Source: Candidatus Ancaeobacter aquaticus
GTDB taxonomy: Bacteria > Auribacterota > Ancaeobacteria > Ancaeobacterales > Ancaeobacteraceae
DNA: 64,000 nt
Direction: 5' to 3'
NCBI GenBank assembly: GCA_030765405.1
Contig: JAVCCP010000067.1
Location: 97,051 to 161,050 of the forward strand
Positions 9,037 to 51,409 of the stretch are shown here, one piece after another. Made by a program: the position numbers and the translations under genes. Position 1 is the stretch's first letter; each line of letters begins with the position of its first letter. The notes under the pieces were generated by a model. The model ran no database searches. It was not told the DNA's origin and saw only the letters and a list, made by a program, of their open reading frames with translations.

Positions 9037-9460
9037 CGTATAAGGTGTTTATCAGTGAAAGATATAGTGCTATTTAAAATCTATGAACGAAATACAGTTA
9101 TTCGAGAACTATGTGTATATGTAATATCTGTTAGTGTGAAGTTGTTTGAGTTAGTAAATAATAAAAATGCCGGTATCTTCCGAGATAATAATCTTAGGAA
9201 GGTAACGGTCTGTTCAAAGATTTTAAATGCATTCAATAAAGGGAATTATTACTCTTTAGCCAATAATTATAAAATATGCCCTGCTTTTGCGCGTATACGG
9301 CAATAAATCTTTCACCAACGCCTATATATTAGGAGCTCAATATCTAATCGAATACTGCATTGTCTGGAAACAGAATAGCGGGAAGCGGTTGTGAGAGCAC
9401 CTACCTGGATAACAGGTATAAAGATTTATGCCAGTGACGGCTTAAGCGGGGTTTTTTTTA

Positions 9461-23784: not shown

Positions 23785-24513
23785 GTGAGACTAAAAGCTC
23801 GAGCGAAAAGTGAAAGCGGAGGAACAGGGAAGCTTCAGAGCAAAAGAGATATTTATAAATTTATCAAGTTTGTAATAGGTATCATACTTATTCCTGCATG
23901 TATTGGCGCTACGATAGCATTTTATAAACTGTTTTTTATCAGGGGAGACCTCGTAAAAAATCAATATTGGTTTATTGTTGGATTTGTTGTGTATGTCATC
24001 ATCTATAGCATATTGCAGAATCCTATCAAAACATATGTATATGGCCATGAATTATCTCATGTATTATGGACGTGGTTATTTAAAGGTAAAGTAAAAGACT
24101 TTTCTGCAACAGTTGATGGCGGCAGTGTAACAGTAACAAAATCAAATTTTTTAATTGCACTTGCACCGTATTTCTTTTCGTTTTATACATTTCTTGCAGT
24201 ATTGGTGTATCTTGTAATTATTTCTTTCTGGCGAATAGGACACCTAGGTAATGATATATTTCACTTTATATTGGGATTTAGCTGGGCATTTCATTTTGTT
24301 CTGACAATATATGTCATTCTTAAGGAGCAGGATGATATAAAAGAGAATGGCGCCCTATTCTCTATTTTCTTTATCTATCTCGCAAACATTGCATTTCTTG
24401 GTTTCTTATTTGTCTATTTATCAGAGGTTGTTACGTTAGAGGAGTTTATAGCGGGAATGACTAAACAGATAAAGAATCAATATTTGTATATCTTTAAGCT
24501 TGGCAGGGTATAA
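23785..24513 (+). CDS. Polytopic membrane protein with an HExxH motif (YGHELSHVLW); DUF3267-like putative zincin peptidase
   Basis: Five to six TM helices. A single HELSH lies after the second helix. The family assignment is from memory; the start codon is uncertain. Confidence 0.5.
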   Translation: MRLKARAKSESGGTGKLQSKRDIYKFIKFVIGIILIPACIGATIAFYKLFFIRGDLVKNQYWFIVGFVVYVIIYSILQNPIKTYVYGHELSHVLWTWLFKGKVKDFSATVDGGSVTVTKSNFLIALAPYFFSFYTFLAVLVYLVIISFWRIGHLGNDIFHFILGFSWAFHFVLTIYVILKEQDDIKENGALFSIFFIYLANIAFLGFLFVYLSEVVTLEEFIAGMTKQIKNQYLYIFKLGRV

Positions 24514-30170: not shown

Positions 30171-31985
30171 ATGAAGAATATAAAGTATTACATTGGAATA
30201 GAGGGTGGTGGAACAAAAACAAGCGGTATTGTTGTTGATAATGCTTTAAAAAAGATTGTAGTTTGTAGTGCTGGCCCTTCAAACTACCATTCAGTAGGAA
30301 TCGAACAAGCACGTGTTAATATTCAAACGGTACTTACCGGATTAATAAATAAGGCAGGTCTAAAACAATCTCATATTACCCGTATTTCATTGTGTCTTGC
30401 CGGTGTAAGCAGAAAAAAAGATTTCGAAAACATCGTACATATTACAAGAAGTACTGGATATGCTCAAAAAATCGTTGTAACAAGCGATATGGTATCTGGA
30501 TTAATTGGCGGCACGGGCAGCCCTCACGGGATTGTTGTTATCTCAGGGACCGGATCAAATATATTTGGTATTAATAAAAAAGGTGTGCAGTTTAATGTCG
30601 GGGGATGGGGGCATTTGCTTGATGATGAAGGGAGCGGTTACCATATCGGACTGAGTGCGTTAAGAGCGGTTGTAAAAGCAAAAGATTATCGAATGATGTC
30701 TACTGTTCTTACTGAAAGCGTATCAAAGAGTATCGGTCTTACAACATTTGATGAGATTGTTGATTGGGCAAGTAATGCACCCAAAGATGCTATTTCGTCA
30801 CTTGCTCCAAACGTCTTTGATTGTGCCCGTGATGGTGATAGAGTCTCCCAATACATTATTTCTCATGCGGCACATTCCTTAATTGAATCAGTAAAAATTA
30901 CGATTGATAGACTAAAGATGGTAAATGAACGGTTTTCAGTAGTTTTAGCCGGAGGTATATTTAAAAAAGAATTGCAATTTTTTAACCGTGTAAAAAATGG
31001 GATAAAACAGTATGGTAGAAATGTCGAGGTGATACGACCAAAACATGATGGTGTTTATGGCGCTGCACTTATTGCGAAACAATTTTATAAAGATTTTGAC
31101 TTATTACAAAAGAAACAAAAGAACACTACTTCTCCTTCTACTGCGAAAAAAAAGACAAGTGAATTAGTTCAATCGATGATACATGAAGATAAGAAAGTTG
31201 CCGGAGCCGTTGAACAGCAGAAAGAATCGATTGTTCAGGCAATAGATATAATTACCTCTGCATATAAACGCGGGGGAAGATTGTTTTACGTTGGTGCTGG
31301 AACAAGTGGGAGGCTGGGCGTTTTAGATGCATCGGAATGTCCTCCAACGTTTGGCGTTTGTTCTGATAGAGTTGTCGGGATTATTGCTGGTGGCGATACG
31401 GCGCTAAGGTATTCGGTAGAAGGTGCTGAGGATAATGCCGAAGAGGGTGCTCGTGATTTAAAAGATCATGGGGTTTTATCTAAAGACGTTGTGGTGGGCA
31501 TTGCTGCAAGTGGTAATACGCCATATGTATTGGGTGCGCTGCGGTACGCAAAGAAGATGAAAGCGCATACAATAGGGGTTTCGTGTAAGAGTGACGTGCA
31601 GTTTAAAAAAATATGCCCCGTGACTATAGCAGTATCACTTGGAGAAGAACTGGTGCGCGGATCAAGTAGGTTGAAGGCGGGGACAGCGACGAAGATGATT
31701 CTGAATATGTTTTCAACAATAACGATGATTCGTGTTGGTAAAGTATATAATGACTTAATGATCAATGTGCAGCCGACGAATAAAAAACTTGTTTTACGGG
31801 CACAGAATATTGTTTCAGAAGTGACAGGATGCACGCTCCAACAAGCCCAGAGACTATTAAAGAAATCACAAGGCAATGTAGAGCTTGCAATAGTAATGAA
31901 ACATAAAAATGTCGGATATAAAGCCGCAAAAGCGCTTATGGCGACACAAGGTGTAACGATTGACAAAGTACTCTGTTTGGAGTAA
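30171..31985 (+). CDS. murQ: Fusion of a BadF/BadG/BcrA/BcrD-type sugar kinase (MurNAc/GlcNAc kinase MurK-like) with N-acetylmuramic acid 6-phosphate etherase MurQ
   Basis: The first ~300 aa contain the ATPase-fold N-terminal YIGIEGGGTKT. After a Lys/Ser-rich linker comes a SIS-domain MurQ (GRLFYVGAGTSGRLGVLDASECPPTFG). Confidence 0.75.
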   Translation: MKNIKYYIGIEGGGTKTSGIVVDNALKKIVVCSAGPSNYHSVGIEQARVNIQTVLTGLINKAGLKQSHITRISLCLAGVSRKKDFENIVHITRSTGYAQKIVVTSDMVSGLIGGTGSPHGIVVISGTGSNIFGINKKGVQFNVGGWGHLLDDEGSGYHIGLSALRAVVKAKDYRMMSTVLTESVSKSIGLTTFDEIVDWASNAPKDAISSLAPNVFDCARDGDRVSQYIISHAAHSLIESVKITIDRLKMVNERFSVVLAGGIFKKELQFFNRVKNGIKQYGRNVEVIRPKHDGVYGAALIAKQFYKDFDLLQKKQKNTTSPSTAKKKTSELVQSMIHEDKKVAGAVEQQKESIVQAIDIITSAYKRGGRLFYVGAGTSGRLGVLDASECPPTFGVCSDRVVGIIAGGDTALRYSVEGAEDNAEEGARDLKDHGVLSKDVVVGIAASGNTPYVLGALRYAKKMKAHTIGVSCKSDVQFKKICPVTIAVSLGEELVRGSSRLKAGTATKMILNMFSTITMIRVGKVYNDLMINVQPTNKKLVLRAQNIVSEVTGCTLQQAQRLLKKSQGNVELAIVMKHKNVGYKAAKALMATQGVTIDKVLCLE

Positions 31986-32004
31986 TAGGGATTACTAGGT
32001 ATAT

Positions 32005-33615
32005 ATGGATATACGTAAAAAAATTGGTGAGATGTTTATCGTAGGCTTTGATGGTCTTTCAGTAACAAAAAGGCTGGAAAAGCTTATAACTGAACACCAT
32101 ATTGGTGGTGTGATACTTTTTGCAAGGAACATAAAAAATATAGGTCAAGTCACGCGTTTTTGTTATAAGCTTCAGGGGATAAGGAAAACAGTGAGTGATA
32201 CACCTCTTTTTATTGCAATTGATCATGAAGGCGGTGTTGTTCAAAGAATTATTGATGGGGTAACTGTTCTGCCGGGTAATATGGCAATTGGCAGTATCAA
32301 TAGCGGTGACTGTGCGTATGCGGCGGGAAGAATAGCAGCATTAGAACTTATGCTTCTTGGCATTAATGTTAATTTTGCTCCAGTCTTGGATGTGTGCTCT
32401 AATCCTGATAATCCACTTACTGGTGTACGTTCTTTTGGAGACGATGCAGATAAAGTAAGTGTGTTCGGGAAAGAGATGATAATTGCGATGCAAAAATACG
32501 GTGTAGTGTCATGTGCAAAACATTTTCCGGGAATTGGTGATGTCCCTGTTGATTCACATATTGATCTACCGCGTAACAATGTGTCTGGCGATTGGTTGAA
32601 AAAACATGCTTTAAAACCATTTATTGCCGCAATAAAAGCGCACGTGAAAATGATTATGCCGGCACATTGCATGTATCCTGAGCTTACCGAAAATAAGATT
32701 TTACCTGCAACGTTATCTGCAAATATTTTAACAAAGCTTCTCCGAAATGAACTCGGGTACAAAGGACTTATTGTTACCGATGATATGGAGATGGGCGCTA
32801 TTGAAAAATATTATGATCTTGATGAAAGTATCCCTAAAGCAGTTGATGCGGGTAACGATATAATACTTATGTGTCATACCCTTGGTAAGCAAAAAAAGGC
32901 ATTAAAGATACTTATTCAGAATGTTTTGAAAGGAAAGATATCCCATGAGAGGATAGAGAAAAGTTATGAGAGAATTAATACCGCTAAAAAAGATCTTATT
33001 ACCGCGCAACCCAGATTTAATGTTGTGCGAGATGCGATACAGGTGCATCATATGATTGCTGAGCGAATAGGACGAGATTCGATAACTATTGTAAAAAACG
33101 ATATGCATATCCTCCCATTATTTCTTGAACAGCATGAGAAACTTTTGATAATTGCTCCGAAATATGAGGCCTTAACACAAGTAGAAGAATTTAATGGTGA
33201 AGATGATGTTTTAATTGAGATGATAAAAATACGGCATAATGATTCATGTTTACACCGTATTGAATTGTCTCCAACGGTTAATGATAAAAAGATATTTGAT
33301 GATCTTGAAGAGTACCACCGTATAATTATGCTTACCTACAACGCGCATTTGAATGAGGCACAAGCAGATTTTGTCGGTAAATTGTGTGAAAAAAGGAATG
33401 ATACGGTAATTGTCGCGATAAGAAATCCATTTGATCTCGCATGTGTTAAAGGCGCGCAGACGACTGTTGCGACATATGGATTCAGAAGCTGTTCTATCAA
33501 GGGGCTTGTAGAAGTGTTATTTGGTGAGATTGAAGCAAAAGGCATTATGCCTGTCGAGCTCGATATATCTCAGAAGAGAGAGAAGAACAAACAAAATGTA
33601 AAAGGTAAAAAATAA
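32005..33615 (+). CDS. nagZ: Beta-N-acetylhexosaminidase (GH3, NagZ-like)
   Basis: GH3 N-terminal domain (FIAIDHEGGVVQRI...KHFPGIGD...D) plus a C-terminal extension. 536 aa. Confidence 0.8.
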   Translation: MDIRKKIGEMFIVGFDGLSVTKRLEKLITEHHIGGVILFARNIKNIGQVTRFCYKLQGIRKTVSDTPLFIAIDHEGGVVQRIIDGVTVLPGNMAIGSINSGDCAYAAGRIAALELMLLGINVNFAPVLDVCSNPDNPLTGVRSFGDDADKVSVFGKEMIIAMQKYGVVSCAKHFPGIGDVPVDSHIDLPRNNVSGDWLKKHALKPFIAAIKAHVKMIMPAHCMYPELTENKILPATLSANILTKLLRNELGYKGLIVTDDMEMGAIEKYYDLDESIPKAVDAGNDIILMCHTLGKQKKALKILIQNVLKGKISHERIEKSYERINTAKKDLITAQPRFNVVRDAIQVHHMIAERIGRDSITIVKNDMHILPLFLEQHEKLLIIAPKYEALTQVEEFNGEDDVLIEMIKIRHNDSCLHRIELSPTVNDKKIFDDLEEYHRIIMLTYNAHLNEAQADFVGKLCEKRNDTVIVAIRNPFDLACVKGAQTTVATYGFRSCSIKGLVEVLFGEIEAKGIMPVELDISQKREKNKQNVKGKK

Positions 33616-34883
33616 TGTACGGTATAAGAAAACTACTACTTGTGGGATTATGTATTTGCGTGATGATGTGTTACGGTTGCACAAAAAAAGATGACGGTAA
33701 AATACACATTACCTATCAAACTATTGAGACGTTGCCTAAGCAGAGAAAACTTCTTAAAAAGCTTATAGCAGAATTCGAGAGACAGTATCCCGTGATAAAA
33801 GTCCATGTTCAGATATCACCGACAGGATTCAGGAAATTACATACGCAGTTTGCGGCAAACAATGCCCCGGATGTTTTTTATTATGTTTCAGACAGGTTAT
33901 ATGGTTTGGTACACAAAAAGAAGATTCTTTCTCTTAATCAGTTTGCTAAGATTGACAATTCGGTCAATTTCGATACGTATTTTCCTGAAACAGTTGAAGC
34001 ATCTACGATAGATGGATTGCTTTACCTCATGCCATACCATTTCAGTACTGATATATTGTTTTATAATAAAGATATGTTTGATATGCATTCGATCCCTTAC
34101 CCAACAAGCGATTGGTCGTGGGATACATTTATGGATGTTGCCCAAAAACTTACTAAAAAACAAAAAGATGTAACGATTGAATACGGTACATTACAGCCAC
34201 GGCCAACGCTTGTGATTCGATCGTTTGGAGGGAAATTCTTTAATCATGATCTTACAGACTGTATTGTAGATACGGAACAAACAAAAGAGGCCTTAGAGTT
34301 TTTAAAAGAGTTGCGAAATAGTGGTGTTGTCCCATCTCAAGCGCAAATTAGAGATGTTGAGATGATGGATGGGGTATCACTTTTTTCAACAGGCAAAATT
34401 GGGATGCTTGTGGGGAGAACATATATGCTTGTTGAGTTTGGTAGTATAGACACATTTGATTGGGATGTTACCTATGTTCCAAAAGGCAAAGAACGCTTTT
34501 CACGGCTTGCTGTTGGCGGTAACTGCATTAACTCATCATCCCAGCATCCTGAAGAGGCATGGAAGCTTGTTAAATTTTTATCTAGTGATGCCGCAATGCA
34601 ACTTGCCGCAGAGTCAAGAAATTGTGTGCCGGCTATAAAATCTGTTGCATATTCAAAAGAATTCATGCATTATCCACCTAAAGACGTGTCAATTTTTGTT
34701 GATTCAATTAATTCTTCTGAAACAGAAAATCCCGGGTTAGCGAACTGGTTTGAGTATGTAGATAAGGTTATTGGGCCTGACGTTGAAAAAGTGATATATG
34801 ACCAGCTTACGATACAGGAAGCAGTGAGTGATATATCAAAACGAGGAAACGATATCCTGAAAAAGGACGAAACAATACATTAA
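33615..34883 (+). CDS. ABC transporter solute-binding lipoprotein (sugar-binding SBP_bac_1-like); no adjacent permease genes
   Basis: Lipoprotein signal (LLLVGLCICVMMCYGC) and an SBP fold pattern. The stop of the upstream gene abuts its ATG. Confidence 0.7.
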   Translation: MYGIRKLLLVGLCICVMMCYGCTKKDDGKIHITYQTIETLPKQRKLLKKLIAEFERQYPVIKVHVQISPTGFRKLHTQFAANNAPDVFYYVSDRLYGLVHKKKILSLNQFAKIDNSVNFDTYFPETVEASTIDGLLYLMPYHFSTDILFYNKDMFDMHSIPYPTSDWSWDTFMDVAQKLTKKQKDVTIEYGTLQPRPTLVIRSFGGKFFNHDLTDCIVDTEQTKEALEFLKELRNSGVVPSQAQIRDVEMMDGVSLFSTGKIGMLVGRTYMLVEFGSIDTFDWDVTYVPKGKERFSRLAVGGNCINSSSQHPEEAWKLVKFLSSDAAMQLAAESRNCVPAIKSVAYSKEFMHYPPKDVSIFVDSINSSETENPGLANWFEYVDKVIGPDVEKVIYDQLTIQEAVSDISKRGNDILKKDETIH

Positions 34884-35291: not shown

Positions 35292-35564
35292 ACTTCCTCC
35301 CCGACTACGGTCAAAGGCTTCTTGACCGCTTTACGTTTCTTGGAAACTAACCCGCCATCAAAAAGCGCACAGATAATTGAATTTTTCCAGTATTATCTTC
35401 TCCTCATGAAACACGAACCCCAAAAACTTGATATGAACGCAATTATTGAATCGGCTGAAAAAGCCCGATTATCCCTCTAAGGTCACTTCGCGTCTAATTC
35501 TACAAAATAGAACCATTGAAAATGCTTTACTAAGTCCTTGACCCGTATTAGAATACATAGTCCT

Positions 35565-36191
35565 ATGGGTACAGTTATAGTTGCAGTCTTTTTAAGTTAT
35601 ATTGTTGGATCAATACCGTTTGGATTTCTAATAGCCAAATACGTCAAAGGTGTTGATATACGCACTGTTGGAAGTAAGAATATTGGTGCTACTAACGTGA
35701 TGAGGACTTTAGGGAAAGGGCCGGGGATTACTACTTTGGTTCTCGATATGCTGAAAGGGTTTGTAGTCGTAACCCTTTTACCCTTTTTGTTTTATAGCGA
35801 TTCATTGGGGATGAGTTACACATTGTTTCAGTTACTGTGTGTTATTGGCGTAATATGTGGCCATACGTGGACATTATTCTTAGGTTTTAAAGGGGGCAAA
35901 GGAGTTGCAACAAGTACGGGTGCTTTATTTGGCATAGCTCCACTTGTGGTGCTCTTTTCATCAATTGTCTGGATAGTGTGTGCTAAAATATCACGCTATG
36001 TGTCACTAAGTTCGATGGTTGCAGCAGTTGCTTTTGTTGTCGGGACTTTTGTTTTTGGTGAGCCTGTTGAGCTTAAGATATTTAGTGTTTTTATTGCACT
36101 TATAATAATTATTCGACACAGATCAAATATTCAGAGACTGAGAGTTGGTACGGAAAATAAGATTGGCCAAAAAGGTGGGGTTGAGAAATAA
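35565..36191 (+). CDS. plsY: Glycerol-3-phosphate acyltransferase PlsY
   Basis: MGTVIVAVFLSYIVGSIPFGFLIAK...GSKNIGATNV is canonical PlsY. The ATG at 35565 has no SD; a possible -10 TAGAAT lies 11 nt upstream. The ORF-track TTG at 35538 is unlikely. Confidence 0.8.
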   Translation: MGTVIVAVFLSYIVGSIPFGFLIAKYVKGVDIRTVGSKNIGATNVMRTLGKGPGITTLVLDMLKGFVVVTLLPFLFYSDSLGMSYTLFQLLCVIGVICGHTWTLFLGFKGGKGVATSTGALFGIAPLVVLFSSIVWIVCAKISRYVSLSSMVAAVAFVVGTFVFGEPVELKIFSVFIALIIIIRHRSNIQRLRVGTENKIGQKGGVEK

Positions 36192-36208: not shown

Positions 36209-37198
36209 ATGAAGATAGCGGTTATTGGTGATGGCGGGTGGGGAACTACCCTAGGAGTACATTTAGCGAAAAAAGGTAATGAAGTTACTATTTGGGGGCC
36301 ATTTCCAGAATATATAGCCCTTTTAAATCAAACTCATGTGAACAGTAAATTTTTGCCGGGAATAGATATTCCTGAGACTGTGATTTTTGGTGCTGATCTG
36401 ATACAAATGGTAAGTGATTCGGAAGTGGTCATTGTAGCGGTCCCTTCACATTATGTGAGATCTGTTGTGTCTCAACTCAAGGATATAGATTGCACAAAAC
36501 AGTTATTTATTACTGTTTCGAAGGGTATTGAAAATGATACCTTAAAAAGAATGAGTGAGATAGTATCTGAAGAGGTATCTCCCTTGCGTTTAGCTGCTCT
36601 TTCCGGGCCGAGCCATGCCGAAGAAGTGGCGCGAGGAATACCAACAAGTGTGACCATTGCATCAAAAAATGAGGATGATGCGCGAGGCGCGCAGGAACTC
36701 TTTAATTCAAATACGTTTCGTGTCTATACCAATACAGACATTGTTGGTGTCGAGCTTGGCGGGGCATTAAAAAATGTTGTTGCTATTGCTGCAGGTATCA
36801 GTGACGGCTTGGGTTTTGGAGATAATGCTAAGGCGGCACTCATGACACGCGGTATAGCAGAAATGATGCGTTTAGGTGTTGCGCTAGGCGGTCAGGCAAA
36901 GACTTTTTCCGGTTTGAGCGGTATAGGCGATCTTATTACTACTTGTATGAGCAGGCACAGTCGTAACAGAGCGTTTGGCGAGATGATCGGCAAGGGAATG
37001 AGTGTTGATGAAGCGCTCAATACTACAGAAATGGTTGTTGAAGGATATCGGACAACAAAATCTGTCCAGCAGATATGTACTTCTTCTGGTGTGGAGATGC
37101 CAATTAGTCAACAGGTATACAATGTGTTGTATGAGAAAAAGAAGCCGTTGAAAGCAGTAGAAGAGCTTATGATGAGGAATCTTAAAGCAGAACATTAA
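36209..37198 (+). CDS. gpsA: Glycerol-3-phosphate dehydrogenase [NAD(P)+]
   Basis: N-terminal Rossmann fold (KIAVIGDGGWGTTLG) plus the GpsA C-terminal domain. Confidence 0.9.
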   Translation: MKIAVIGDGGWGTTLGVHLAKKGNEVTIWGPFPEYIALLNQTHVNSKFLPGIDIPETVIFGADLIQMVSDSEVVIVAVPSHYVRSVVSQLKDIDCTKQLFITVSKGIENDTLKRMSEIVSEEVSPLRLAALSGPSHAEEVARGIPTSVTIASKNEDDARGAQELFNSNTFRVYTNTDIVGVELGGALKNVVAIAAGISDGLGFGDNAKAALMTRGIAEMMRLGVALGGQAKTFSGLSGIGDLITTCMSRHSRNRAFGEMIGKGMSVDEALNTTEMVVEGYRTTKSVQQICTSSGVEMPISQQVYNVLYEKKKPLKAVEELMMRNLKAEH

Positions 37199-37351: not shown

Positions 37352-37428
37352 CGGAGCGTAGCGCAGCCTGGATAGCGCACACCCTTGGGGTGGGTGAGGT
37401 CGGTGGTTCAAATCCACTCGCTCCGACC
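37352..37428 (+). tRNA. tRNA-Pro (anticodon GGG), CCA encoded
   Basis: Acceptor CGGAGCG pairs with CGCTCCG. D-arm GCGC-AGCCTGGATA-GCGC. Anticodon stem CACCC/GGGTG with loop TTGGGGT. T-arm GGTGG-TTCAAAT-CCACT. Discriminator A, then CCA. Close to E. coli tRNA-Pro. Confidence 0.8.
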
Positions 37429-37515
37429 ATTAGTACGTATCTCGCAACTCGTGATTCGTATGGTATATATTAGGTATAACTGATAGATTATTATTTATAT
37501 TTGGAGAATCGTATT

Positions 37516-38811
37516 ATGAAAGCTATACAAATCGGCATTATAGGTTTTGGAACGATCGGAACGGGAGTAGTGAAGAATCTTAAAAAGAATGCTTCACTAT
37601 TATCTGAGCGTCTTGGTGCTCAGATCAAAATTAAGGGTATCGCGGACATTGATATAAAGAAGAAACGAAGTGTCTCTGTCCCTCAATCGCTTTTAACGAA
37701 AGATGCTCATAAACTTTTAAATGATCCCGATATAGATATTATTGTTGAGCTGGTTGGCGGTTACGAGCCTGCTAAATCATTTATTTTAAAGGCATTAAAA
37801 AATGGTAAGCATATAGTAACGGCAAACAAAGCGCTTTTAGCTGTTCACGGTAAAGAATTAGCTGCAGCAGCTGAAAAGGCCGGAAGATCGATATTCTATG
37901 AAGCGAGTGTTGCCGGTGGTATTCCTATTATTAAGGCATTAAGAGAAGGATTTGTCGGAAATAACATAAGCTCAATATTTGGTATCGTTAATGGTACGGC
38001 AAACTATATTCTTACCAAAATGACTAAAGATGGAAGTGAGTTTTCAGAAACGCTCAAAGAGGCACAAGAAAAAGGATATGCTGAAAGCGATCCAACGTTT
38101 GATGTTGAGGGAGATGATTCTGCGCACAAACTAGCAATTCTCGCACGGCTTGCAAGCGGGTACTGGATAGATTATAAGGATATTTATATTGAAGGTATTA
38201 GTGAAATTACTGAAAAGGATATTGAGTATGCGGGAGAATTAGGTTGTGTTATTAAGCTTCTTGCCATCATGAAAGAAAAAGATAATAAGATAGAGGCACG
38301 CGTACATCCGACCCTTATTGCAAAAGATAATCTCTTGTCCACTATAAACGGGGTGTATAACGCGGTATGCGTTGAAGGTGATGTAGTTGGTAAGACGATG
38401 TTTTATGGTAAAGGTGCTGGTGAGGACCCAACGGCAAGTGCGGTGATTAGTGATATTGTCGATATTGCCCGCAATATACTAAATAATGCGCCTGCAAGAA
38501 TACCATCATTTACGACGGTTAAAAAAATTAAAGGCGTAAAGAAAATCGATGAGTTTGAATCACGTGCATATCTGCGTGTATCAGCGCTGGACAGACCAAG
38601 TGTGTTGGCAAAGATTGCCGGGGTTTTGGGTAAATACGAGATAAGCATATCTTCGGTGATGCAAAAAGAACGTAATGTTAAAGGCGGGACAGTTCCTGTT
38701 TTGATGCTGACACATAAAGCAAAAGAAAGAAACCTGAAAAACGCATTAAAAGAACTTGATCGGCTATCAGTTATTAAGAGCAAAACAATAATGATACGTA
38801 TGGAAGATTAA
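37516..38811 (+). CDS. hom: Homoserine dehydrogenase (NAD-binding, catalytic and ACT domains)
   Basis: [13 protein letters not shown] Rossmann fold plus a C-terminal ACT domain. ATG at 37516 follows GGAGAA. Confidence 0.85.
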
Positions 38812-38828: not shown

Positions 38829-39890
38829 ATGGCAGCAAGCGGAATAATAGATCGATACAGAGAATATTTACCGGTATCAGACAAAACGCCGGTCATTTCA
38901 TTACATGAGGGTGATACACCGCTTATACGCGGCGAGCATTCTGCAGAATATCTCAGTAGTAATATAGAGATATTTTTTAAGTATGAGGGACTTAATCCCA
39001 CGGGTTCTTTTAAGGATAGAGGCATGACAATGGCTATCTCTAAGGCTGTTGAAGAGGGTTCAAAGGCTGTGATGTGCGCATCAACAGGTAATACCTCGGC
39101 ATCAGCCGCAGCTTACAGTGCACGTGCAGGGTTAGAGTGTATTGTTCTTCTTCCAAAAGGTGCTATTGCAATGGGTAAACTTGCTCAAGCACTTGTACAT
39201 GGGGCTAATGTGATAGCAGTTGAAGGAAATTTTGATGATGCCCTGCGCATAGTGAGAGAGATTACTGATAAATATCCTATAACGTTAGTGAATTCACTAA
39301 ATCCATATCGTATTGAAGGACAAAAAAGCGCTGCATTTGAAATATGTGATGAGTTTAACGGGGAAGTGCCTGATTATCATGCTATTCCTGTTGGTAATGC
39401 AGGTAATATTACTGCGTATTGGAAAGGATTTAAGGAGTATCACAAAAATAATAAAATAAAAAAACTGCCAAAGATGATTGGTTTTCAAGCGGCAGGTTCC
39501 GCGCCGATTGTGGAGAATAGAGTTATTGAAGATCCTCAGACAATTGCGACCGCGATTAAGATAGGAAATCCTGCAAGCTGGCAACAAGCCGTGGACGCTA
39601 TGAACGAGTCAAGCGGTCTTATTGACAAGGTGACAGATGATGAGATACTTGAAGCGTACAAAATACTTGCTTCACGTGAAGGAATCTTTGTTGAACCCGC
39701 ATCAGCTGCATCACTTGCCGGAGTCATAAAAAAGGATAAAAGCGGTTATTTTGGAGATAAAAAAGTAAGGATAACGTGCACGGTAACAGGACATGGTCTC
39801 AAAGATCCAGATACTGCGCTTAAGTCTGTTTCCGATCCGGTTGTTGTAAAAGCTGATAGTAGTGAAGTTTTGAAAGTTATTGGTTTATAA
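38829..39890 (+). CDS. thrC: Threonine synthase
   Basis: PLP-lysine motif GSFKDRG. 353 aa, short-form ThrC. Confidence 0.85.
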
Positions 39891-39913
39891 ACGTTGAGAA
39901 TAAGGAATCTATT

Positions 39914-41116
39914 ATGAAATACGTTGTAATTGTTGGCGATGGAATGGCAGATTTTCCGATTTCCGAACTGAACAATAAAACCCCGCTTGAAATTGCACGT
40001 ACTCCGCATTTTGACACTATTGCCAAAATAGGTTGTGGCGGCTTAGCGAGAAATGTACCCAAAGGTATGGATCCTGCTAGCGATGTGGCAAATCTTTCAA
40101 TACTTGGGTATGACCCGAAAGAATGTTATTCAGGTCGCGGACCGTTAGAGGCTATTGATATGGGGATAGAGCTTCAGCCTAATCAGGTCGCGTTTCGATG
40201 TAATTTTGTTACGATATCAGATGGAATGATGGCTGATTATAGTGCTGGACATATATCTAATGAAGAAGGTACGGTATTAATAGATCTCCTTAATAAAGAG
40301 CTTGGGGCCGATAGTGTTCAGTTCTATCAAGGGATGAATTATCGAAACATTGTAGTTATAGATGAAGCCAAACTTGAAGATGGGTCGGGGACACTTCACT
40401 GTGTGCCGCCTCATGACATAACGGGTAAACCCATTAATGCAAATATCCCGAGAGGAAAAGGGTCCGAGTTTTTGATCGGTTTAATGGAAAAGGCGGCTAA
40501 TATTCTCGGAACATGCGAAATAAACAAAGTAAGAATTGATCATGGTGAAAATCCAGCGAATATGATTTGGTTGTGGGGATACGGAAAAACACCTCAAATG
40601 GTGAGTTTCCAAGAACGTTTTGGTGTGCGGGGTGCAGTCATATCCGCGGTGAAGTTATTGAAGGGTATTGGCAAAGCGCTGAAAATGGATGTTATTGATG
40701 TCCCCGGGGCAACGGGATACTACGATACAAATTATAAAGGTAAAGCAGAACACTGTTTGAAGGCACTTTCTGAGGGCTGTGACTATGTGTTTGTGCATAT
40801 TGAAGCACCCGATGAAGCGGGACACAATGGTGATCTCACACAAAAAGTACTTGCTATAGAAAATATTGATGAACACGTAGTTAAAGTAATTATGGAAGGT
40901 ATTGCGAAATATGACCAGTATCGAGTGCTTCTTCTTCCTGATCATTACACACCGCTATCGGTAAAAACGCACATTCCTGATCCGGTACCGTTTGTAATGT
41001 GTGGCAGTGACATTAATGCGGATGATATGCAAATTATGAGTGAGAACGAAGCCCAGAAGGGTTCGTGCGGAGTTGTTGAGGGACATGCATTAATGGATAT
41101 GTTGATTCAAAAGTAA
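39914..41116 (+). CDS. Archaeal-type cofactor-independent phosphoglycerate mutase family protein (ApgM-like). Candidate non-orthologous homoserine kinase.
   Basis: VIVGDGMADFPISELNNKTPLEIARTPHFDTIAKIGCGGLARNVP...SDVANLSILGYDP...GRGPLEA...VAFRCNFVT matches the ApgM/TIGR00306 N-terminal signature. It sits between thrC and lysC with 23-nt gaps. Confidence 0.7.
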   Translation: MKYVVIVGDGMADFPISELNNKTPLEIARTPHFDTIAKIGCGGLARNVPKGMDPASDVANLSILGYDPKECYSGRGPLEAIDMGIELQPNQVAFRCNFVTISDGMMADYSAGHISNEEGTVLIDLLNKELGADSVQFYQGMNYRNIVVIDEAKLEDGSGTLHCVPPHDITGKPINANIPRGKGSEFLIGLMEKAANILGTCEINKVRIDHGENPANMIWLWGYGKTPQMVSFQERFGVRGAVISAVKLLKGIGKALKMDVIDVPGATGYYDTNYKGKAEHCLKALSEGCDYVFVHIEAPDEAGHNGDLTQKVLAIENIDEHVVKVIMEGIAKYDQYRVLLLPDHYTPLSVKTHIPDPVPFVMCGSDINADDMQIMSENEAQKGSCGVVEGHALMDMLIQK

Positions 41117-41139: not shown

Positions 41140-42393
41140 ATGTTAGTTGTGCAAAAATATGGCGGGACATCAGTTGGAAGCACGGATAAAATTATGAATG
41201 TTGCTCGCCGGATAATCAAATCAAAGAAAAGTGGAAATGATGTTATTGTTGTTGTGTCTGCAATGAGTGGACAAACGGATAAACTTATAAACATGGCTCA
41301 TGATATTACTGATGATCCCCGTGAACGTGAGATGGATATGCTTGTGTCAACGGGTGAACAGGTCTCAATGTCCCTTTTAGCTATGTGTGTACATGAGCTG
41401 GGTGACGAGGCGATTTCATTTACCGGTTCACAAGTCGGTATTGTTACAGACAGTACGCATACAAAAGCAAAGATACGTAGAGTTATCGGCATGGATAAAG
41501 TGAAAGCAGAGCTTAAGAAAGGGAAAATTGTTATTGTTGCCGGTTTTCAAGGTGTTGATTACAAAAAAAATATTACGACACTTGGGCGTGGTGGATCTGA
41601 TACAACAGCCGTTGCGCTTGCCGCAGTACTAAAGGCAGATCAATGTGAAATATATACTGATGTAGACGGAGTGTATACCACTGACCCGCGTTTGGTGAAA
41701 GATGCTCGTAAGCTCGGCGTGATTTCTTATGACGAGATGTTGGAGCTTGCAAGCCTTGGTGCGAAAGTGATGCATTCACGATCAATTGAAATGGCAAAAA
41801 AATATGGTGTGGTGATACATGTTAGATCAAGTTTTAATGATAATTTGGGGACGTTAATTAAAGAGGAGGATGCTCTTATGGAAAATATAATGGTAAGAGG
41901 TGTTGCACTCAATAGAAATGAAGCAAAGCTAACCATTTTGCATGTGCCGGATAAACCGGGTATTGCGGCAAGAATATTCAAAATAATTTCAGAAAACAAT
42001 ATTAATATTGATATGATCATTCAGAATGTCAGTGAACGAGGGTTTACCGATATATCGTTTACTGTATTGAAGACTGATTTACGTAAAACATATAAAGTTC
42101 TGGAAGTACTCGTGAAAAAAATTGGTGCACGAGGATTGAGTCATGATGAGGACATGGTTAAACTATCAGTTGTGGGCGTTGGAATGAGAAGTCATGCCGG
42201 TATCGCGGCGGCTATGTTTGAAGCTCTCGCATCAAAAAAAGTTAATATTGATATGATCAGCACCTCAGAGATTAAAATATCATGTGTTATACACCGCAAA
42301 GACGCGGAAAAAGCGGTAAAGGCGATTCATGATAAGTTCGGGTTAGCGAAGAAAAAAATGCTAAAAGAAAAAATGGTTGCTGCAAAAAAATAG
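41140..42393 (+). CDS. lysC: Aspartate kinase (monofunctional, two C-terminal ACT domains)
   Basis: VQKYGGTSVGS kinase N-terminus plus tandem ACT domains. The ATG at 41140 is 9 nt after GGAGG. Confidence 0.85.
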   Translation: MLVVQKYGGTSVGSTDKIMNVARRIIKSKKSGNDVIVVVSAMSGQTDKLINMAHDITDDPREREMDMLVSTGEQVSMSLLAMCVHELGDEAISFTGSQVGIVTDSTHTKAKIRRVIGMDKVKAELKKGKIVIVAGFQGVDYKKNITTLGRGGSDTTAVALAAVLKADQCEIYTDVDGVYTTDPRLVKDARKLGVISYDEMLELASLGAKVMHSRSIEMAKKYGVVIHVRSSFNDNLGTLIKEEDALMENIMVRGVALNRNEAKLTILHVPDKPGIAARIFKIISENNINIDMIIQNVSERGFTDISFTVLKTDLRKTYKVLEVLVKKIGARGLSHDEDMVKLSVVGVGMRSHAGIAAAMFEALASKKVNIDMISTSEIKISCVIHRKDAEKAVKAIHDKFGLAKKKMLKEKMVAAKK

Positions 42394-42417: not shown

Positions 42418-43983
42418 ATGAAAAAGACATTTATATACGATACAACCTTGCGAGATGGCACTCAGGCTGAAGGTGTATCATTTTCTGTTGCAGATAAAGT
42501 GAGAATAGCTGAACGGCTTGATGGTTTTGGCATAGATTATGTTGAGGGCGGCTGGCCGGGGTCAAATCCGAAAGATATAGAGTTTTTTGATCTCATGAAA
42601 AAAATAAAACTCAAACATGCAAAAATGTCTGCTTTCGGGAGTACACGCAGAGCAAATACACCGGTTGAAAAAGAGACTAATATCCTGAAGCTTCTAGAAG
42701 CTGAGACACCGGTTGTAGCAATATTTGGTAAAAGCTGGATATTGCATGTTACGGATGTTTTAAAAGTATCAAAAGCTGAGAATCTTCGCATGATACAAGA
42801 TTCTGTCGGGTACTTGCATTCAAAAGGAAAAGAAGTTATTTTTGACGCTGAACATTTCTTTGATGGATACAAAGATGATCCTGAATATGCGCTTGAGACA
42901 TTAAAGGTCGCTTCAGAGCACGGTGCGTCAACCTTGGCATTGTGTGACACAAATGGCGGGACCATGCCTAATGAGATAACTGATATTGTAAAAAAGGTAC
43001 ATGCAAATTTTGATACACCGATTGGCATACATGTTCATAATGATGGGGGTATGGCAAACGCAAATAGTATTCTTGCAGTTCTTTCGGGCGCGGTACATGT
43101 GCAGGGAACAATAAACGGCTATGGCGAACGATGCGGCAATGCAAACCTGTGTACTATTGTCCCAAGTTTAGTATTAAAACTGGGATATAAATGTGTTTCA
43201 GAAAAGAAGCTGAAGGAGTTGGTAGAGGTATCACGATTTGTTGATGAGCTCGCGAATTTAAGGCCAAACGATAAACACCCGTATGTTGGGTTAAGCGCAT
43301 TTGCTCATAAAGGCGGAATGCATGTTAATGCAGTAGAAAAAAATCCAAAGACTTTTGAGCATATTGTTCCTGAACTTGTCGGTAATAAGAGAAGAATCTT
43401 GATCTCAGAATTATCAGGTAAAAGTAATGTCTTATTAAAAACAAGTGAACTGGGACTTAGCTTTGCAAAAGATTTCCATGTAACTAAAGACATTATTGAA
43501 AATCTTAAGAAACTTGAGCATGAAGGATATGAGTTTGAAGCTGCAAGTGGATCATTTGAGCTTCTTGTGAAAAAAGCCTTAAAACATCACAAGACATTCT
43601 TTAAGCTTGAAGGGTTCAGAGTAATAGTTGAAAAACGTGAAGATGACAAACTTATATCTGAGGCGACAATAAAGGTGAAGGTTGGTAAAGAAACGGTACA
43701 TACGGCGGCTGAAGGAGAGGGTCCGGTAAACGCACTTGATAATGCTCTCAGAAAAGCACTGTGTCAATTCTACCCTGAAATATCAAAAGTAAAACTTGCC
43801 GATTTCAAGGTGCGTGTACTTGACGCTAAAGCCGGTACTGCTGCAAAAGTACGTGTTCTTATCGAATCAAGCGATGATAAAGAGATCTGGGGGACGGTAG
43901 GTGTGTCAGAGAACATTATTGAAGCAAGCTGGCAAGCACTTGTCGATAGCGTTGAATATAAATTACTAAAAACAAAAAAATAA
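42418..43983 (+). CDS. cimA: (R)-citramalate synthase / 2-isopropylmalate synthase family protein (CimA-type, about 520 aa)
   Basis: [27 protein letters not shown]...HxH...; the length and C-terminal LeuA-dimer-like domain fit CimA better than LeuA. Confidence 0.7.
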
Positions 43984-44001: not shown

Positions 44002-46656
44002 ATGGTTGAATTACCAAAACAGTATAATCCTAAAGAAGTTGAGCAAGAAATTAAAGATTTCTGGTTAAATGGTAAATTTGCGCATGCAGATAGTGATAAA
44101 GGAGGCACTCCTTATACTATCGTTATTCCACCGCCTAATATTACCGGTATACTTCACATGGGACATGCTTTGAATAACACTATTCAGGATGTGCTGACAC
44201 GTTGGAAGAGGATGGAAGGGTTTAACGCTCTTTGGCTTCCGGGAACAGATCATGCGGGCATTGCGACACAGAACGTTGTTGAGAAAAAACTGATGCACGA
44301 AAAGAAAACCCGTAAAGATGTAGGACGAGACGCATTTATTGAAAAAGTATGGAAATGGCGTGAAGAATATGGTGGAACGATCATAAAACAGTTAAAGATG
44401 CTTGGCTGTTCATGTGACTGGGATCGTGAACGGTTCACAATGGATGAAGGACTCAGTGATGCGGTGAGCGAAGTATTTATTAAGTTGTATGACAAGGGGC
44501 TGATTTATAGAGGGAACTATATTATTAATTGGTGTCCGCGCTGTGAAACTGCATTATCAGATGAAGAGGCAGAGCACCGTGAAATTGACGGCTCGCTCTA
44601 TTATATCAAATACCATGTAGAAGACTCTAAAGAAACCATTACAGTGGCAACGACGAGACCTGAGACGATGCTTGGTGATGTTGCTGTTGCGATAAATCCT
44701 AAGGATGCACGGTACACTCATCTCATCGATAAAACAATTATACTTCCATTGGTAAACAGAAAAATGAAAGTCATAACTGACGATTTTGTTGATCCGGAGT
44801 TTGGTACCGGTGTTGTAAAAGTAACGCCGGCACATGATCCGAACGATTTTGAAATGGGTCTCAGGCACAAGCTTACGCCCATTAATGTTATGCATGAAAA
44901 CGGTGTTATGAATGAAAATGCCGGTGAAGCATATGAAGGTATGGATAGATTTGAAGCAAGAGAAGCGATCTTACTTGATCTTAAAGAACTCAAACTCCTT
45001 GAAAAGGTAGACCATCATTCACATGCAGTAGGGCATTGTTACCGGTGTCATTCTGTTGTAGAGCCACGTCTTTCACGGCAATGGTTTGTGAAAATGAAAC
45101 CTCTTGCTGAACCAGCGTTAAAAGCACATCGTGACGGAAAAATAAAATTTCATCCTGCCAGATGGAATAAAGTATATACAGAATGGTTAGAAAATATTCG
45201 TGACTGGTGTATATCGCGTCAAATATGGTGGGGACACCGCATACCGGTATGGTATTGTAATGATTGTGATAAAGAAATTGCATCAAAAGATTGTCCTAAA
45301 GAATGTCCGCAGTGCAAGAAACACAGTTTTACCCAAGATGAAGATGTTCTTGATACATGGTTTTCGTCGTGGTTGTGGCCGTTTTCAACATTGGGCTGGC
45401 CGGAAAAAACAAAGGATTTAGACTTCTATTACCCCACAAATTGTCTTGTTACCGCGCAGGAAATAATCTTTTTCTGGGTTGCACGTATGATCATGTCTGG
45501 TATCGAGTTTATGGGGGAGGTGCCCTTTAGTGATGTCTATATTCACGGAACCGTAAGAGATGATAGCGGTACAAAGATGAGTAAATCGCTCGGTAATATT
45601 ATTGATCCACTTGATATAATAGAGAAATATGGCGCAGACGCTTTACGTTTCAGCATTATCATGATAACAAGTCAGGGCCAGGACGTTTATTTATCAGAAG
45701 ATAAGTTTGAAATAGGGAGAAACTTTGCCAATAAGATTTGGAACGCTTCACGATTTCTTATGATGAATTTTGAAGATGTATCAGAACAAAAATTAGATAA
45801 CTATAAAGATATGCTTACTGTCGAAGACAGATATATTTTATCGCGCATGAATTTGACAATAAAAAATGTAAATAAAGCGCTCGGTGAATACCGTTTTAAT
45901 GAAGCATGTCATCTGATATATGATTTTTTCTGGCATTATTATTGTGATCGATACATTGAGTCAGCAAAACTCGATCTTTATAGTGAAAACGACAAAGATA
46001 AGATTAAAACAAAGGTAGTTTTAAAGACTGTTCTTGAAACTTCGATGAAACTCTTACATCCTTTTATGCCGTACATCACAGAAGAAATATGGCGAAAACT
46101 TAATGGTGAAAGTAGTGACACTAAAAAAACTATAATGCACGCTCAGTGGCCACAGGTAAATAAGGTATTTATTGATGAAAAGATAATCTCTAAAGTAGAA
46201 AAAAAGTATGAGATGATACGGTGTGGGAGAAACTTAAGGACAGAATATAAAATACCGCCTAAAAACGAAGTTGAATTCATTTTTAAAGCGGTAAGTGAAG
46301 AGGGTAAAAAATTCTTTGAGTCTGAAAAACCGAATATTATGAAACAGCTTAAAGCATCACAGTTTGATATAGTCGATGAGTTTACTCCCGATAGACCAAT
46401 GGTATCAAATGTATGTGAAACAGGTACGGTCTATCTTTCTTTGGAGGGTAATCTTGATCTCGATGCGGAAAAAGATCGATTGCAAAAATCGATAGAGAAG
46501 CTCGGAACACAGATTGAACAGATCAATAAAAAATTATTGAATAGAAACTTTGTTGAACGAGCACCAAAAGAAGTTGTTGAAAAAGAAGAAAATAATAAAA
46601 AAGAACTCGAAGAAAAGATAAAGAAAATCGAAACAAATATTTCACACCTGCAATAG
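44002..46656 (+). CDS. valS: Valyl-tRNA synthetase
   Basis: HIGH motif (PPPNITGILHMGH), KMSKS motif, editing domain and C-terminal coiled coil. 884 aa. Confidence 0.9.
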   Translation: MVELPKQYNPKEVEQEIKDFWLNGKFAHADSDKGGTPYTIVIPPPNITGILHMGHALNNTIQDVLTRWKRMEGFNALWLPGTDHAGIATQNVVEKKLMHEKKTRKDVGRDAFIEKVWKWREEYGGTIIKQLKMLGCSCDWDRERFTMDEGLSDAVSEVFIKLYDKGLIYRGNYIINWCPRCETALSDEEAEHREIDGSLYYIKYHVEDSKETITVATTRPETMLGDVAVAINPKDARYTHLIDKTIILPLVNRKMKVITDDFVDPEFGTGVVKVTPAHDPNDFEMGLRHKLTPINVMHENGVMNENAGEAYEGMDRFEAREAILLDLKELKLLEKVDHHSHAVGHCYRCHSVVEPRLSRQWFVKMKPLAEPALKAHRDGKIKFHPARWNKVYTEWLENIRDWCISRQIWWGHRIPVWYCNDCDKEIASKDCPKECPQCKKHSFTQDEDVLDTWFSSWLWPFSTLGWPEKTKDLDFYYPTNCLVTAQEIIFFWVARMIMSGIEFMGEVPFSDVYIHGTVRDDSGTKMSKSLGNIIDPLDIIEKYGADALRFSIIMITSQGQDVYLSEDKFEIGRNFANKIWNASRFLMMNFEDVSEQKLDNYKDMLTVEDRYILSRMNLTIKNVNKALGEYRFNEACHLIYDFFWHYYCDRYIESAKLDLYSENDKDKIKTKVVLKTVLETSMKLLHPFMPYITEEIWRKLNGESSDTKKTIMHAQWPQVNKVFIDEKIISKVEKKYEMIRCGRNLRTEYKIPPKNEVEFIFKAVSEEGKKFFESEKPNIMKQLKASQFDIVDEFTPDRPMVSNVCETGTVYLSLEGNLDLDAEKDRLQKSIEKLGTQIEQINKKLLNRNFVERAPKEVVEKEENNKKELEEKIKKIETNISHLQ

Positions 46657-46679: not shown

Positions 46680-46931
46680 ATGAGTAAATTAAAATTAGAT
46701 CTCCACGACATATTTAATAAAGGCAAGAAGATTGAGGATGCTCTTGCATCTATCATGAACGATGCGGTAAAAAAGAAGATAAAAACCGTTGAAATCATTC
46801 CAGGAAAAGGTTCGGGTCAGCTCAAAAAGAAAGTAATAAAGTTTCTTGAAAAAAATAAGGGGATGTATCACCGCATAGAGAAAGATTCGCATAATTGGGG
46901 TAGACTTTTTGTCCATTTCAAACATAACTAG
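46680..46931 (+). CDS. Stand-alone Smr-domain protein
   Basis: LDLHD...EIIPGKGSGQLKKKVIKFL matches the Smr pattern (LDLHG...IIHGKG.G.L). A small hairpin CTAGC-TTT-GCTAG followed by TTTT overlaps the stop. Confidence 0.6.
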   Translation: MSKLKLDLHDIFNKGKKIEDALASIMNDAVKKKIKTVEIIPGKGSGQLKKKVIKFLEKNKGMYHRIEKDSHNWGRLFVHFKHN

Positions 46932-50081: not shown

Positions 50082-50970
50082 ATGAAGAAAAAAAGACATA
50101 AAAGCACTAAGTCAAGCGAGTTTCTGAGCGAGGAAATGGAATGGCTTTATCTTACACCTGCCCAGAGAATGCATGAGACAACAAAGTTATGGCAATTATT
50201 TATTGCTATGCGAGGGAACCTTGATCCTGAACCCGATCCTCAAAGTCCTTTCTATTTTCAAAAAAAATAAAGTCAAAGGCCTTTTAATTGGCGGCCAGGC
50301 ATGCATTATTTACGGTGCAGCTGAATTTAGCCGTGATTCTGATTTTGTTGTACTTTGTAAAGAAGATAATTTACAGAGAATACGCATTGCATTAAAGGAA
50401 TTGAAAGCTAAGATTATTTATGTCCCCCCATTAGAAATTGAATATTTAGAGCGTGGTCATGCCTGCCATTTTAGGTGCGTTGCCAGAGATGTACAGGGTT
50501 TACGGGTGGACGTAATTTCTAAACTCAGAGGTTGTGAACCGTTTGATGAATTATGGAAGCGAAGGAAGAGGATAATTTTGACAAGAACCAATTCTGTAGA
50601 TGTAATTGGACTTAAAGATCTTGTCCAGTGTAAAAAAACTCAGCGGGATAAAGATTGGTTAATGCTTAAACGGCTGGTTGAAAATGACATTATTATAAAC
50701 AAAGATAAGTGTCCATCCGATGATAAAATAAGATGGTGGCTTTTTGAATCCCGAATACCCGAAACCCTTATTAAGTTGACAGAGAAGTATCCTAAAATTG
50801 TAAAAAATTGCATATCTGATAGACCGTCTTTAATCTCAGCCATAAAAAAAGATTTACAAAAACTTAACGTGCAACTTCAAGAAGAAGAACGTGTAGAACG
50901 AGAGAAAGATATAGAGTATTGGACTCCCTTGAAAAAGGAACTGGAATTATTACGCAGGAAATTAAGATAG
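50082..50970 (+). pseudogene. Minimal nucleotidyltransferase-fold protein (GG...DSD motif) split by a +1 frameshift at an A8 homopolymer (50260-50267)
   Basis: ORF1 (50082-50270) ends at TAA directly after A8. The +1 frame continues FKKNKVKGLLIGGQACIIYGAAEFSRDSDFVV..., an NTase motif. The two pieces are colinear. Confidence 0.6.
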
Positions 50971-51343: not shown

Positions 51344-51409
51344 ATGAAACGAAAAAAGAAGAGGTCTGTACATAAACGGTATCTGAATAACAGAAAGAGT
51401 GAATTATGA
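51344..51409 (+). CDS. 21-codon highly basic upstream ORF (MKRKKKRSVHKRYLNNRKSEL). Apparently leaderless. Its TGA overlaps the ATG of the giant gene (ATGA).
   Basis: ATG at 51344 is 7 nt after the -10. It is in frame through TGA at 51407-51409. The giant gene ATG is at 51406. Confidence 0.4.
   Translation: MKRKKKRSVHKRYLNNRKSEL

Follow-up and report, generated by a model that had tools for sequence, protein, structure and literature searches.

Background

On the basis of comparative genomics, the enzyme family called ThrB2 or HomK was predicted to stand in for ThrB, the ATP-dependent homoserine kinase of the GHMP type (PF00288) (PMC7311316, PMC9026213). Bacteroides thetaiotaomicron does not possess thrB, and its BT2402 mutants are threonine auxotrophs (PMC7311316). 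We studied a stretch of 64,000 nucleotides from Candidatus Ancaeobacter aquaticus (contig JAVCCP010000067.1; hereafter "the window") and found that an open reading frame (ORF) at positions 39914..41116 on the plus strand, designated here as homK, is an ordinary member of this described family.

Ashniev et al., who gave the name ThrB2, surveyed 2856 gut genomes and found the gene in 300, of which 278 are without thrB; thrB2 is usually located in an operon with thrC and hom, and the occurrences of thrB2 and thrB are complementary (PMC9026213). The GapMind 2026 preprint renamed the family HomK ("homoserine phosphotransferase") and reported that both BT2402 and a diverged homologue from Dehalococcoides mccartyi, DET_RS08350, rescue an Escherichia coli thrB::kan strain (bioRxiv 10.1101/2024.10.14.618325). 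It also assigned S56 as the catalytic serine, proposed E299 (Lys in the mutases) as the specificity residue, listed the metal ligands, and argued that the phosphodonor is neither ATP nor phosphoglycerate, suggesting phosphoserine (bioRxiv 10.1101/2024.10.14.618325). In this sense our finding is already known: it repeats an annotation given by a curated hidden Markov model and lately confirmed genetically for the family.

In the present study, we established the family membership, the conserved catalytic core, the residue replacements, the predicted fold, and the conserved gene context of homK. We estimate at about 0.85 the probability that homK encodes HomK (ThrB2, TIGR02535), a metal-dependent phosphotransferase of the alkaline-phosphatase superfamily that descends from the archaeal-type cofactor-independent phosphoglycerate mutases (ApgM) and replaces the GHMP-type homoserine kinase ThrB. 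A sequence-only reading of the window had proposed that this ApgM-like protein phosphorylates homoserine. The proposal is supported at the family level by the TIGR02535 score, the defining residues, and the genetics of BT2402 and DET_RS08350, and the comparative-genomic prediction on which it drew, of ApgM-like proteins as analogues of homoserine kinase, is indeed in the literature (PMC7311316, PMC9026213).

Family assignment

The deduced HomK protein contains two Pfam domains, PF10143 (PhosphMutase, E = 1.7e-54) and PF01676 (Metalloenzyme, E = 3.7e-46), and no others. It also scores above the cutoffs of three curated profiles: TIGR02535, "proposed homoserine kinase" (539.0 bits, cutoff 446.3); NF003242, "cofactor-independent phosphoglycerate mutase" (555 bits, cutoff 426); and TIGR00306, the broad apgM subfamily (522.2 bits, cutoff 320). 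These domain and profile scores are far above chance expectation, and the strong ApgM signature noticed earlier is therefore real. The TIGR02535 score is higher than the TIGR00306 score. The cutoff of NF003104, the equivalog for archaeal mutases, is not reached (335.7 bits, cutoff 489). A PhpG-type phosphonoformyl transferase (NF038358) was rejected as a candidate (242 bits, cutoff 545).

As a control for the profiles, we used two solved archaeal mutases, from Thermoplasma acidophilum (3kd8) and Pyrococcus horikoshii (2zkt). Both pass NF003104 (540 and 596 bits, respectively) and fail TIGR02535 (279 and 325 bits) as well as NF003242 (283 and 326 bits). Since the solved mutases fail both of the latter profiles, NF003242 and TIGR02535 are one clade with two names; the HomK protein lies inside this clade and the true mutases lie outside. 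NF003242 also tracks TIGR02535 at loci L007, L008, L074, and L087. RefSeq naming of HomK-type proteins as mutases extends to Bacteroides finegoldii, where a fragment carries an operon of thrA, a gene named "cofactor-independent phosphoglycerate mutase", and then thrC.

These scores bear on the possibility that homK encodes a genuine glycolytic cofactor-independent phosphoglycerate mutase that is merely located among genes of the aspartate family. Such an enzyme would share the fold and the catalytic core of ApgM, as HomK does; the cutoffs of NF003242 and TIGR00306 are passed, and both the Joint Genome Institute (JGI) and the National Center for Biotechnology Information (NCBI) call the homologues phosphoglycerate mutase. 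However, the HomK protein fails NF003104, the true mutases fail NF003242 and TIGR02535, and those members of the clade that have been tested function in threonine synthesis (bioRxiv 10.1101/2024.10.14.618325). Together with the residue replacements described below, this makes a glycolytic mutase very improbable.

Catalytic and specificity residues

We compared 104 HomK-type sequences (the protein from the window, those from 80 genome loci, and 23 database hits) with 3kd8 and 2zkt. The residues of BT2402 were compared via the B. finegoldii orthologue (locus L087, 5001-6236), which was obtained from a tblastn search of a plasmid collection that returned Bacteroidales records; its D9, S56, E299, D346, and H347 are equal to the published BT2402 numbers. 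A five-way alignment included the protein from the window, the B. finegoldii orthologue, 3kd8, 2zkt, and a homologue from Macrococcus.

The key residues of HomK are D9, S56 (nucleophile), Y109, S110, H113, Y143, W219, W221, E297, D300, H304, D343, H344, and H353. The catalytic and metal-binding residues D9, S56, D300, H304, D343, H344, and H353 are kept and are invariant in 104/104 HomK-type sequences. In the five-way alignment, D9, S56, D343, and H344 align with D9, S56, D346, and H347 of B. finegoldii, and the ligands of the second metal (Asp-x3-His and a distal His; D300, H304, and H353) are common to the HomK set and both solved mutases. The numbers given for the second metal of BT2402 in the preprint (D274, H278, and H325; Appendix 3, bioRxiv 10.1101/2024.10.14.618325) differ from the aligned Bacteroides residues D302, H306, and H356.

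At seven positions, the HomK-type sequences are at least 97% conserved and both solved mutases share a different residue. Arg in the mutases is replaced by Tyr at position 109, Ser at 110, His at 113, and Trp at 221; the other replacements are His to Tyr at 143, Leu to Trp at 219, and Lys to Glu at 297. The mutase motif DRRAGR consequently reads DYSAGH in HomK. E297, which aligns with E299 of B. finegoldii, is Glu in 99% of the 104 HomK-type sequences and Lys in 3kd8, 2zkt, and the Macrococcus homologue. The Bacteroides orthologue has the same seven replacements, except that position 109 is His. The Macrococcus homologue (plasmid p19Msa1099-1, locus L088, 4992-6227) has the mutase-type residues R, R, R, H, R, and K, with Thr in place of the nucleophile Ser; its gene is directly downstream of those for an anion symporter of the DASS family and for a LysR-family regulator, the latter being transcribed divergently.

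Judging from the alignment, five cationic residues of the mutase pocket (R, R, R, R, and K) have been removed, giving Y109, S110, H113, W221, and E297. This argues against a glycolytic mutase, and it would fit a change of substrate in which a zwitterionic amino acid took the place of a doubly anionic compound. The loss of the arginine cluster widens the specificity argument of the preprint, which was based on the single residue E299.

Gene, protein, and predicted fold

The ORF at 39914..41116 (+) was confirmed as noted earlier, with an ATG start and 400 amino acid residues, and we annotate it from the profile scores, the residues, and the AlphaFold2 model as homK (ThrB2/TIGR02535), predicted to encode a homoserine phosphotransferase with the ApgM fold. 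A ribosome-binding site, AAGGAA (39902..39907, +), can be read from the sequence 7 nt 5' of the ATG, within the spacer between thrC and homK.

The AlphaFold2 model, built from an alignment of 24 sequences, has a mean predicted local distance difference test score (pLDDT) of 93.5 and a predicted template-modelling score (pTM) of 0.90. Its closest match in the Protein Data Bank is the P. horikoshii mutase 2zkt (template-modelling score (TM) 0.81-0.85), with 3idd/3kd8 also found; bacterial cofactor-independent phosphoglycerate mutases, phosphopentomutases, and alkaline phosphatases are remoter matches. To our knowledge, no structure of a HomK family member has been solved. HomK thus resembles the archaeal ApgM proteins (2zkt, 3kd8/3idd; NF003104) in its predicted two-domain fold, its Ser nucleophile, its binuclear metal site, and an identity of about 30%. 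Unlike them, it lacks the arginines of DRRAGR as well as R221 and K297, falls below NF003104 (336 against 489 bits), and is proposed to transfer phosphate between two molecules and not within one.

A test of the HomK protein for ThrB features, the GHMP_kinases_N domain (PF00288) by Pfam and the PxGSGLGSSA motif by motif search, was negative. The protein is an analogue of ThrB, outside its GHMP family. What the two would share is their step in the pathway and its product, proposed here to be O-phosphohomoserine; they are not homologous, and HomK, unlike ThrB, has neither a GHMP domain nor a nucleotide-binding fold, is proposed to form a covalent phospho-enzyme, and probably uses a donor other than ATP.

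Proposed reaction and phosphodonor

By homology with the mutases, we propose the following reaction. A binuclear metal site would activate Ser56, with D9, S56, D343, and H344 binding one ion and D300, H304, and H353 the other. Ser56 would then be transiently phosphorylated by a phosphodonor in a ping-pong reaction, and the phosphate would move from phospho-Ser56 to the gamma-hydroxyl of L-homoserine, whose amino group may be held by Glu297. Homoserine would be supplied by Hom, encoded two genes upstream, and O-phospho-L-homoserine would be consumed by ThrC, encoded 23 nt upstream.

The direct donor is probably not ATP, because HomK has an alkaline-phosphatase-type fold and a serine nucleophile and no nucleotide-binding fold. 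HomK is unlikely to be a kinase that depends on ATP, and an assay with homoserine and ATP could therefore be falsely negative. That homoserine can be phosphorylated without ATP, via a phospho-enzyme, has a precedent in ThrH, the phosphoserine:homoserine phosphotransferase of Pseudomonas aeruginosa (bioRxiv 10.1101/2024.10.14.618325). ThrH is not homologous to HomK; it has a HAD fold and an aspartate nucleophile, in contrast to the alkaline-phosphatase-type serine of HomK.

By homology, phosphoglycerate is the most obvious donor. The protein could then be bifunctional, phosphorylating homoserine (for example with 2- or 3-phosphoglycerate) and also acting as the sole phosphoglycerate mutase of the cell, and no second mutase was found in the window. 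However, the phosphoglycerate-binding arginine cluster is lost, and glycerate kinase does not co-occur with HomK, being present in 53% of HomK genomes and 67% of ThrB genomes (bioRxiv 10.1101/2024.10.14.618325). Because 64 kb says little on a whole genome, the missing second mutase adds little, and we consider a bifunctional enzyme quite unlikely.

As a speculation, which we also regard as unlikely, the donor could be L-aspartyl-4-phosphate, the product of LysC, encoded directly downstream of homK. The transfer of phosphate from an acyl phosphate to an ester phosphate is strongly downhill. Aspartyl-4-phosphate has approximately the size and shape of O-phosphohomoserine; thus, a single pocket, in which E297 would hold the alpha-amino group, could accommodate first the donor and then the acceptor, in an alternation like that of a mutase with 3- and 2-phosphoglycerate. 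In the window as in Bacteroides (thrA-homK-thrC), homK has an aspartate kinase adjoining it or fused nearby, which we count for this donor, but the linkage is equally explained by the common pathway. The idea is absent from the GapMind 2026 paper, which suggests phosphoserine.

Gene cluster

The homK gene is located in a run of genes on the plus strand. The run includes hom (37516-38811), encoding homoserine dehydrogenase with a C-terminal ACT domain (PF00742, PF03447, and PF01842; NF004976, 553 bits, cutoff 205); thrC (38829-39890), encoding threonine synthase (TIGR00260, 335 bits, cutoff 167); homK; lysC (41134 or 41140 to 42393), encoding a monofunctional aspartate kinase with two ACT domains (NF005155, 611 bits, cutoff 346); and cimA (42418-43983), encoding citramalate synthase (TIGR00977, 777 bits, cutoff 450). 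Upstream of hom are plsY (35538-36191), gpsA (36209-37198), and, between gpsA and hom, the gene for tRNA-Pro(GGG) (37352-37429); downstream of cimA are valS (44002-46656), encoding valine-tRNA ligase in the same direction, and smr (46680-46931). All are on the plus strand. For hom, the ORF list gave TTG 37501 as the start; ATG 37516 has a GGAG ribosome-binding site and matches other gene calls.

The extent of the operon was judged by short spacers only: 17 nt between hom and thrC, 23 nt between thrC and homK, 17 or 23 nt between homK and lysC, 24 nt between lysC and cimA, and 18 nt between cimA and valS. The sequence-only reading had placed homK in the thrB position of a hom-thrC-X-lysC-cimA cluster; we found the same co-directional run and extended it to valS, which is probably co-transcribed with the cluster and is outside the threonine pathway. 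The spacing of 23-24 nt that it gave for both neighbours holds for thrC (23 nt). For lysC it holds only if the start is ATG 41140, with a 23-nt spacer; from ATG 41134 the spacer is 17 nt. ATG 41140 is probably the start, since it is better spaced behind GAGGAGG.

The whole window was scanned with Rfam, which gave only tRNAs and 6S RNA; the vicinity of the cluster contained no leader, T-box, or lysine riboswitch. Matches to promoter and terminator consensus sequences in the 35-48 kb region were not more frequent than in shuffled sequence.

The product of cimA passes TIGR00977 and is below the cutoffs of all LeuA models, so a pyruvate-derived, threonine-independent route to 2-oxobutyrate and isoleucine, as proposed earlier for the adjacent CimA-type synthase, is a reasonable reading of the sequence.

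No GHMP-kinase ThrB was found in the window, in agreement with the earlier observation. The Pfam scans, which covered coding ORFs of at least 150 amino acid residues in the window minus seven minus-strand ORFs overlapping plus-strand genes, detected no GHMP kinase (PF00288 or PF08544), no HAD-type ThrH, and no second phosphoglycerate mutase, and a regular expression for the GHMP motif gave zero matches in the six frames of the 64-kb window.

The gene context also bears on a related activity. Dehre_1608 (CbiU) and cobD-linked homologues, relatives of HomK that also have the Glu, have been proposed to phosphorylate L-threonine to L-threonine-O-3-phosphate for CobD in cobalamin synthesis (PMC4285132; bioRxiv 10.1101/2024.10.14.618325). 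However, the Pfam scans found neither cobD nor other cobalamin genes in the window, and most of the 80 related loci described below have homK flanked by thrC and lysC. The cobD-linked homologues score higher against TIGR00306 than against TIGR02535 (bioRxiv 10.1101/2024.10.14.618325), and the HomK protein shows the opposite. Threonine phosphorylation is almost certainly not the function of homK.

Conservation of the locus

To study synteny, we kept the best 80 related loci from species-representative genomes, and counts are limited to the loci with enough flanking DNA. An identical HomK protein is encoded on 14 metagenome contigs with unchanged neighbours. Of the 80 loci kept, the closest belongs to Candidatus Auribacterota RA.bin133 (JAKLEM01), a metagenome-assembled genome of the PVC group, in which HomK is 64% identical and eight syntenic genes (57-81% identity) are in unchanged order. 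The remaining 79 loci are mostly from Omnitrophota, with a HomK identity of 50-57%.

The lysC gene is immediately 3' of homK in 42/62 loci and within 4 kb in 59/62. Similarly, thrC is within 5 kb upstream of homK in 50/58 loci and hom is within 7 kb in 52/58. The block gpsA-tRNA-Pro-hom-thrC-homK-lysC-cimA-valS is kept across the 80 related loci, and its gene order is unusually stable at about 50% protein identity. The tRNA-Pro(GGG) gene was inside the block in 32/33 Omnitrophota/Auribacterota loci scanned (range L007-L086); in L015 and L035 it is located between thrC and homK. Some lineages have specific insertions beside homK, namely CstA transporters between homK and lysC, and CoaB/DFP, LemA, TPM-domain, and PMT-like genes between thrC and homK. 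These genes were searched for clues to the phosphodonor, and none was informative.

The locus resembles the described systems in several respects. Like the family of BT2402 and DET_RS08350, HomK is above the trusted cutoff of TIGR02535; with the B. finegoldii orthologue it shares the catalytic Ser, the metal ligands, the specificity Glu, and the Y/H-S-H and W-x-W replacements, and the gene likewise has hom, thrC, and aspartate kinase genes around it. It differs from Bacteroides HomK in gene order (hom-thrC-homK-lysC-cimA and thrA-homK-thrC, respectively), at a protein identity of 43%. Unlike BT2402 and DET_RS08350, it belongs to an uncultured relative of Auribacterota/Omnitrophota, and its function is predicted from sequence.

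Weighing of the evidence

Several points speak against the assignment of homK as a gene for homoserine phosphotransferase. The highest score of the protein (555 bits) is to NF003242, an 'equivalog' named cofactor-independent phosphoglycerate mutase; the weight of this score is reduced because true mutases fail the profile. The complementation by BT2402 was weak, with an increase in optical density at 600 nm (OD600) of 0.14 in 47 h (bioRxiv 10.1101/2024.10.14.618325), and an earlier attempt with BT2402 failed (PMC7311316, bioRxiv 10.1101/2024.10.14.618325). No in vitro assay has been published for any HomK family member, nor has the phosphodonor been established in the literature, and the Bacteroides (B. 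finegoldii) orthologue is distant, with the 43% identity given above. The absence of thrB and of another mutase applies to the 64-kb window and not to the whole genome.

Finally, much of the synteny is inherited gene order and is not independent evidence. We lowered its weight because the loci come from one broad lineage, in which the unrelated gpsA, tRNA-Pro, and valS genes are also kept in order; it is supporting, not decisive. As these unrelated genes are in the conserved block, position alone is weak evidence against a glycolytic mutase. Returning to homoserine phosphotransfer, we infer from the family that homK would be the orthologue supplying homoserine-kinase function in this host.

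Other features of the window

The GC skew is positive in all 2-kb bins of positions 1-64000 (0.12-0.31), nearly all genes are on the plus strand, and the GC content is 33-42%. The skew and the gene orientation suggest that the whole window is on one leading-strand replichore. The stretch with the top GC skew of the window (0.31) contains an ORF of 1633 amino acid residues (51406-56307, +), for which Pfam gave one weak HEAT-repeat match.

A region at 30171-34883 (+) encodes a fusion of a BadF/BcrA-type ATPase (sugar-kinase-like) and SIS/GKRP (604 amino acid residues) and, after it, a glycosidase of family GH3 and the sugar-binding protein of an ABC transporter, and looks like a cassette for recycling of amino sugars or MurNAc. 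The 6S RNA gene (9275-9456, +; RF00013, 52.9 bits, gathering cutoff 46.4) has pheT on one side and, on the other, a gene for an AAA+ ATPase of the MgsA type. Two ORFs, at 23785-24513 (242 amino acid residues) and 50173-50970 (265 amino acid residues), both on the plus strand, had no Pfam match.

Conclusions

Two of our observations bear on the question of the phosphodonor in this family, neither of which is specific to the window: the loss of the arginine cluster argues against phosphoglycerate as the donor, and the linkage with aspartate kinase is very stable. The practical value of our finding is in annotation. In NF003242 (NCBI) and at JGI, this clade goes under the name "cofactor-independent phosphoglycerate mutase", and with this name pathway reconstruction of uncultured Auribacterota/Omnitrophota-like bacteria would report a false gap in threonine synthesis and credit these organisms with a glycolytic enzyme that is probably absent.

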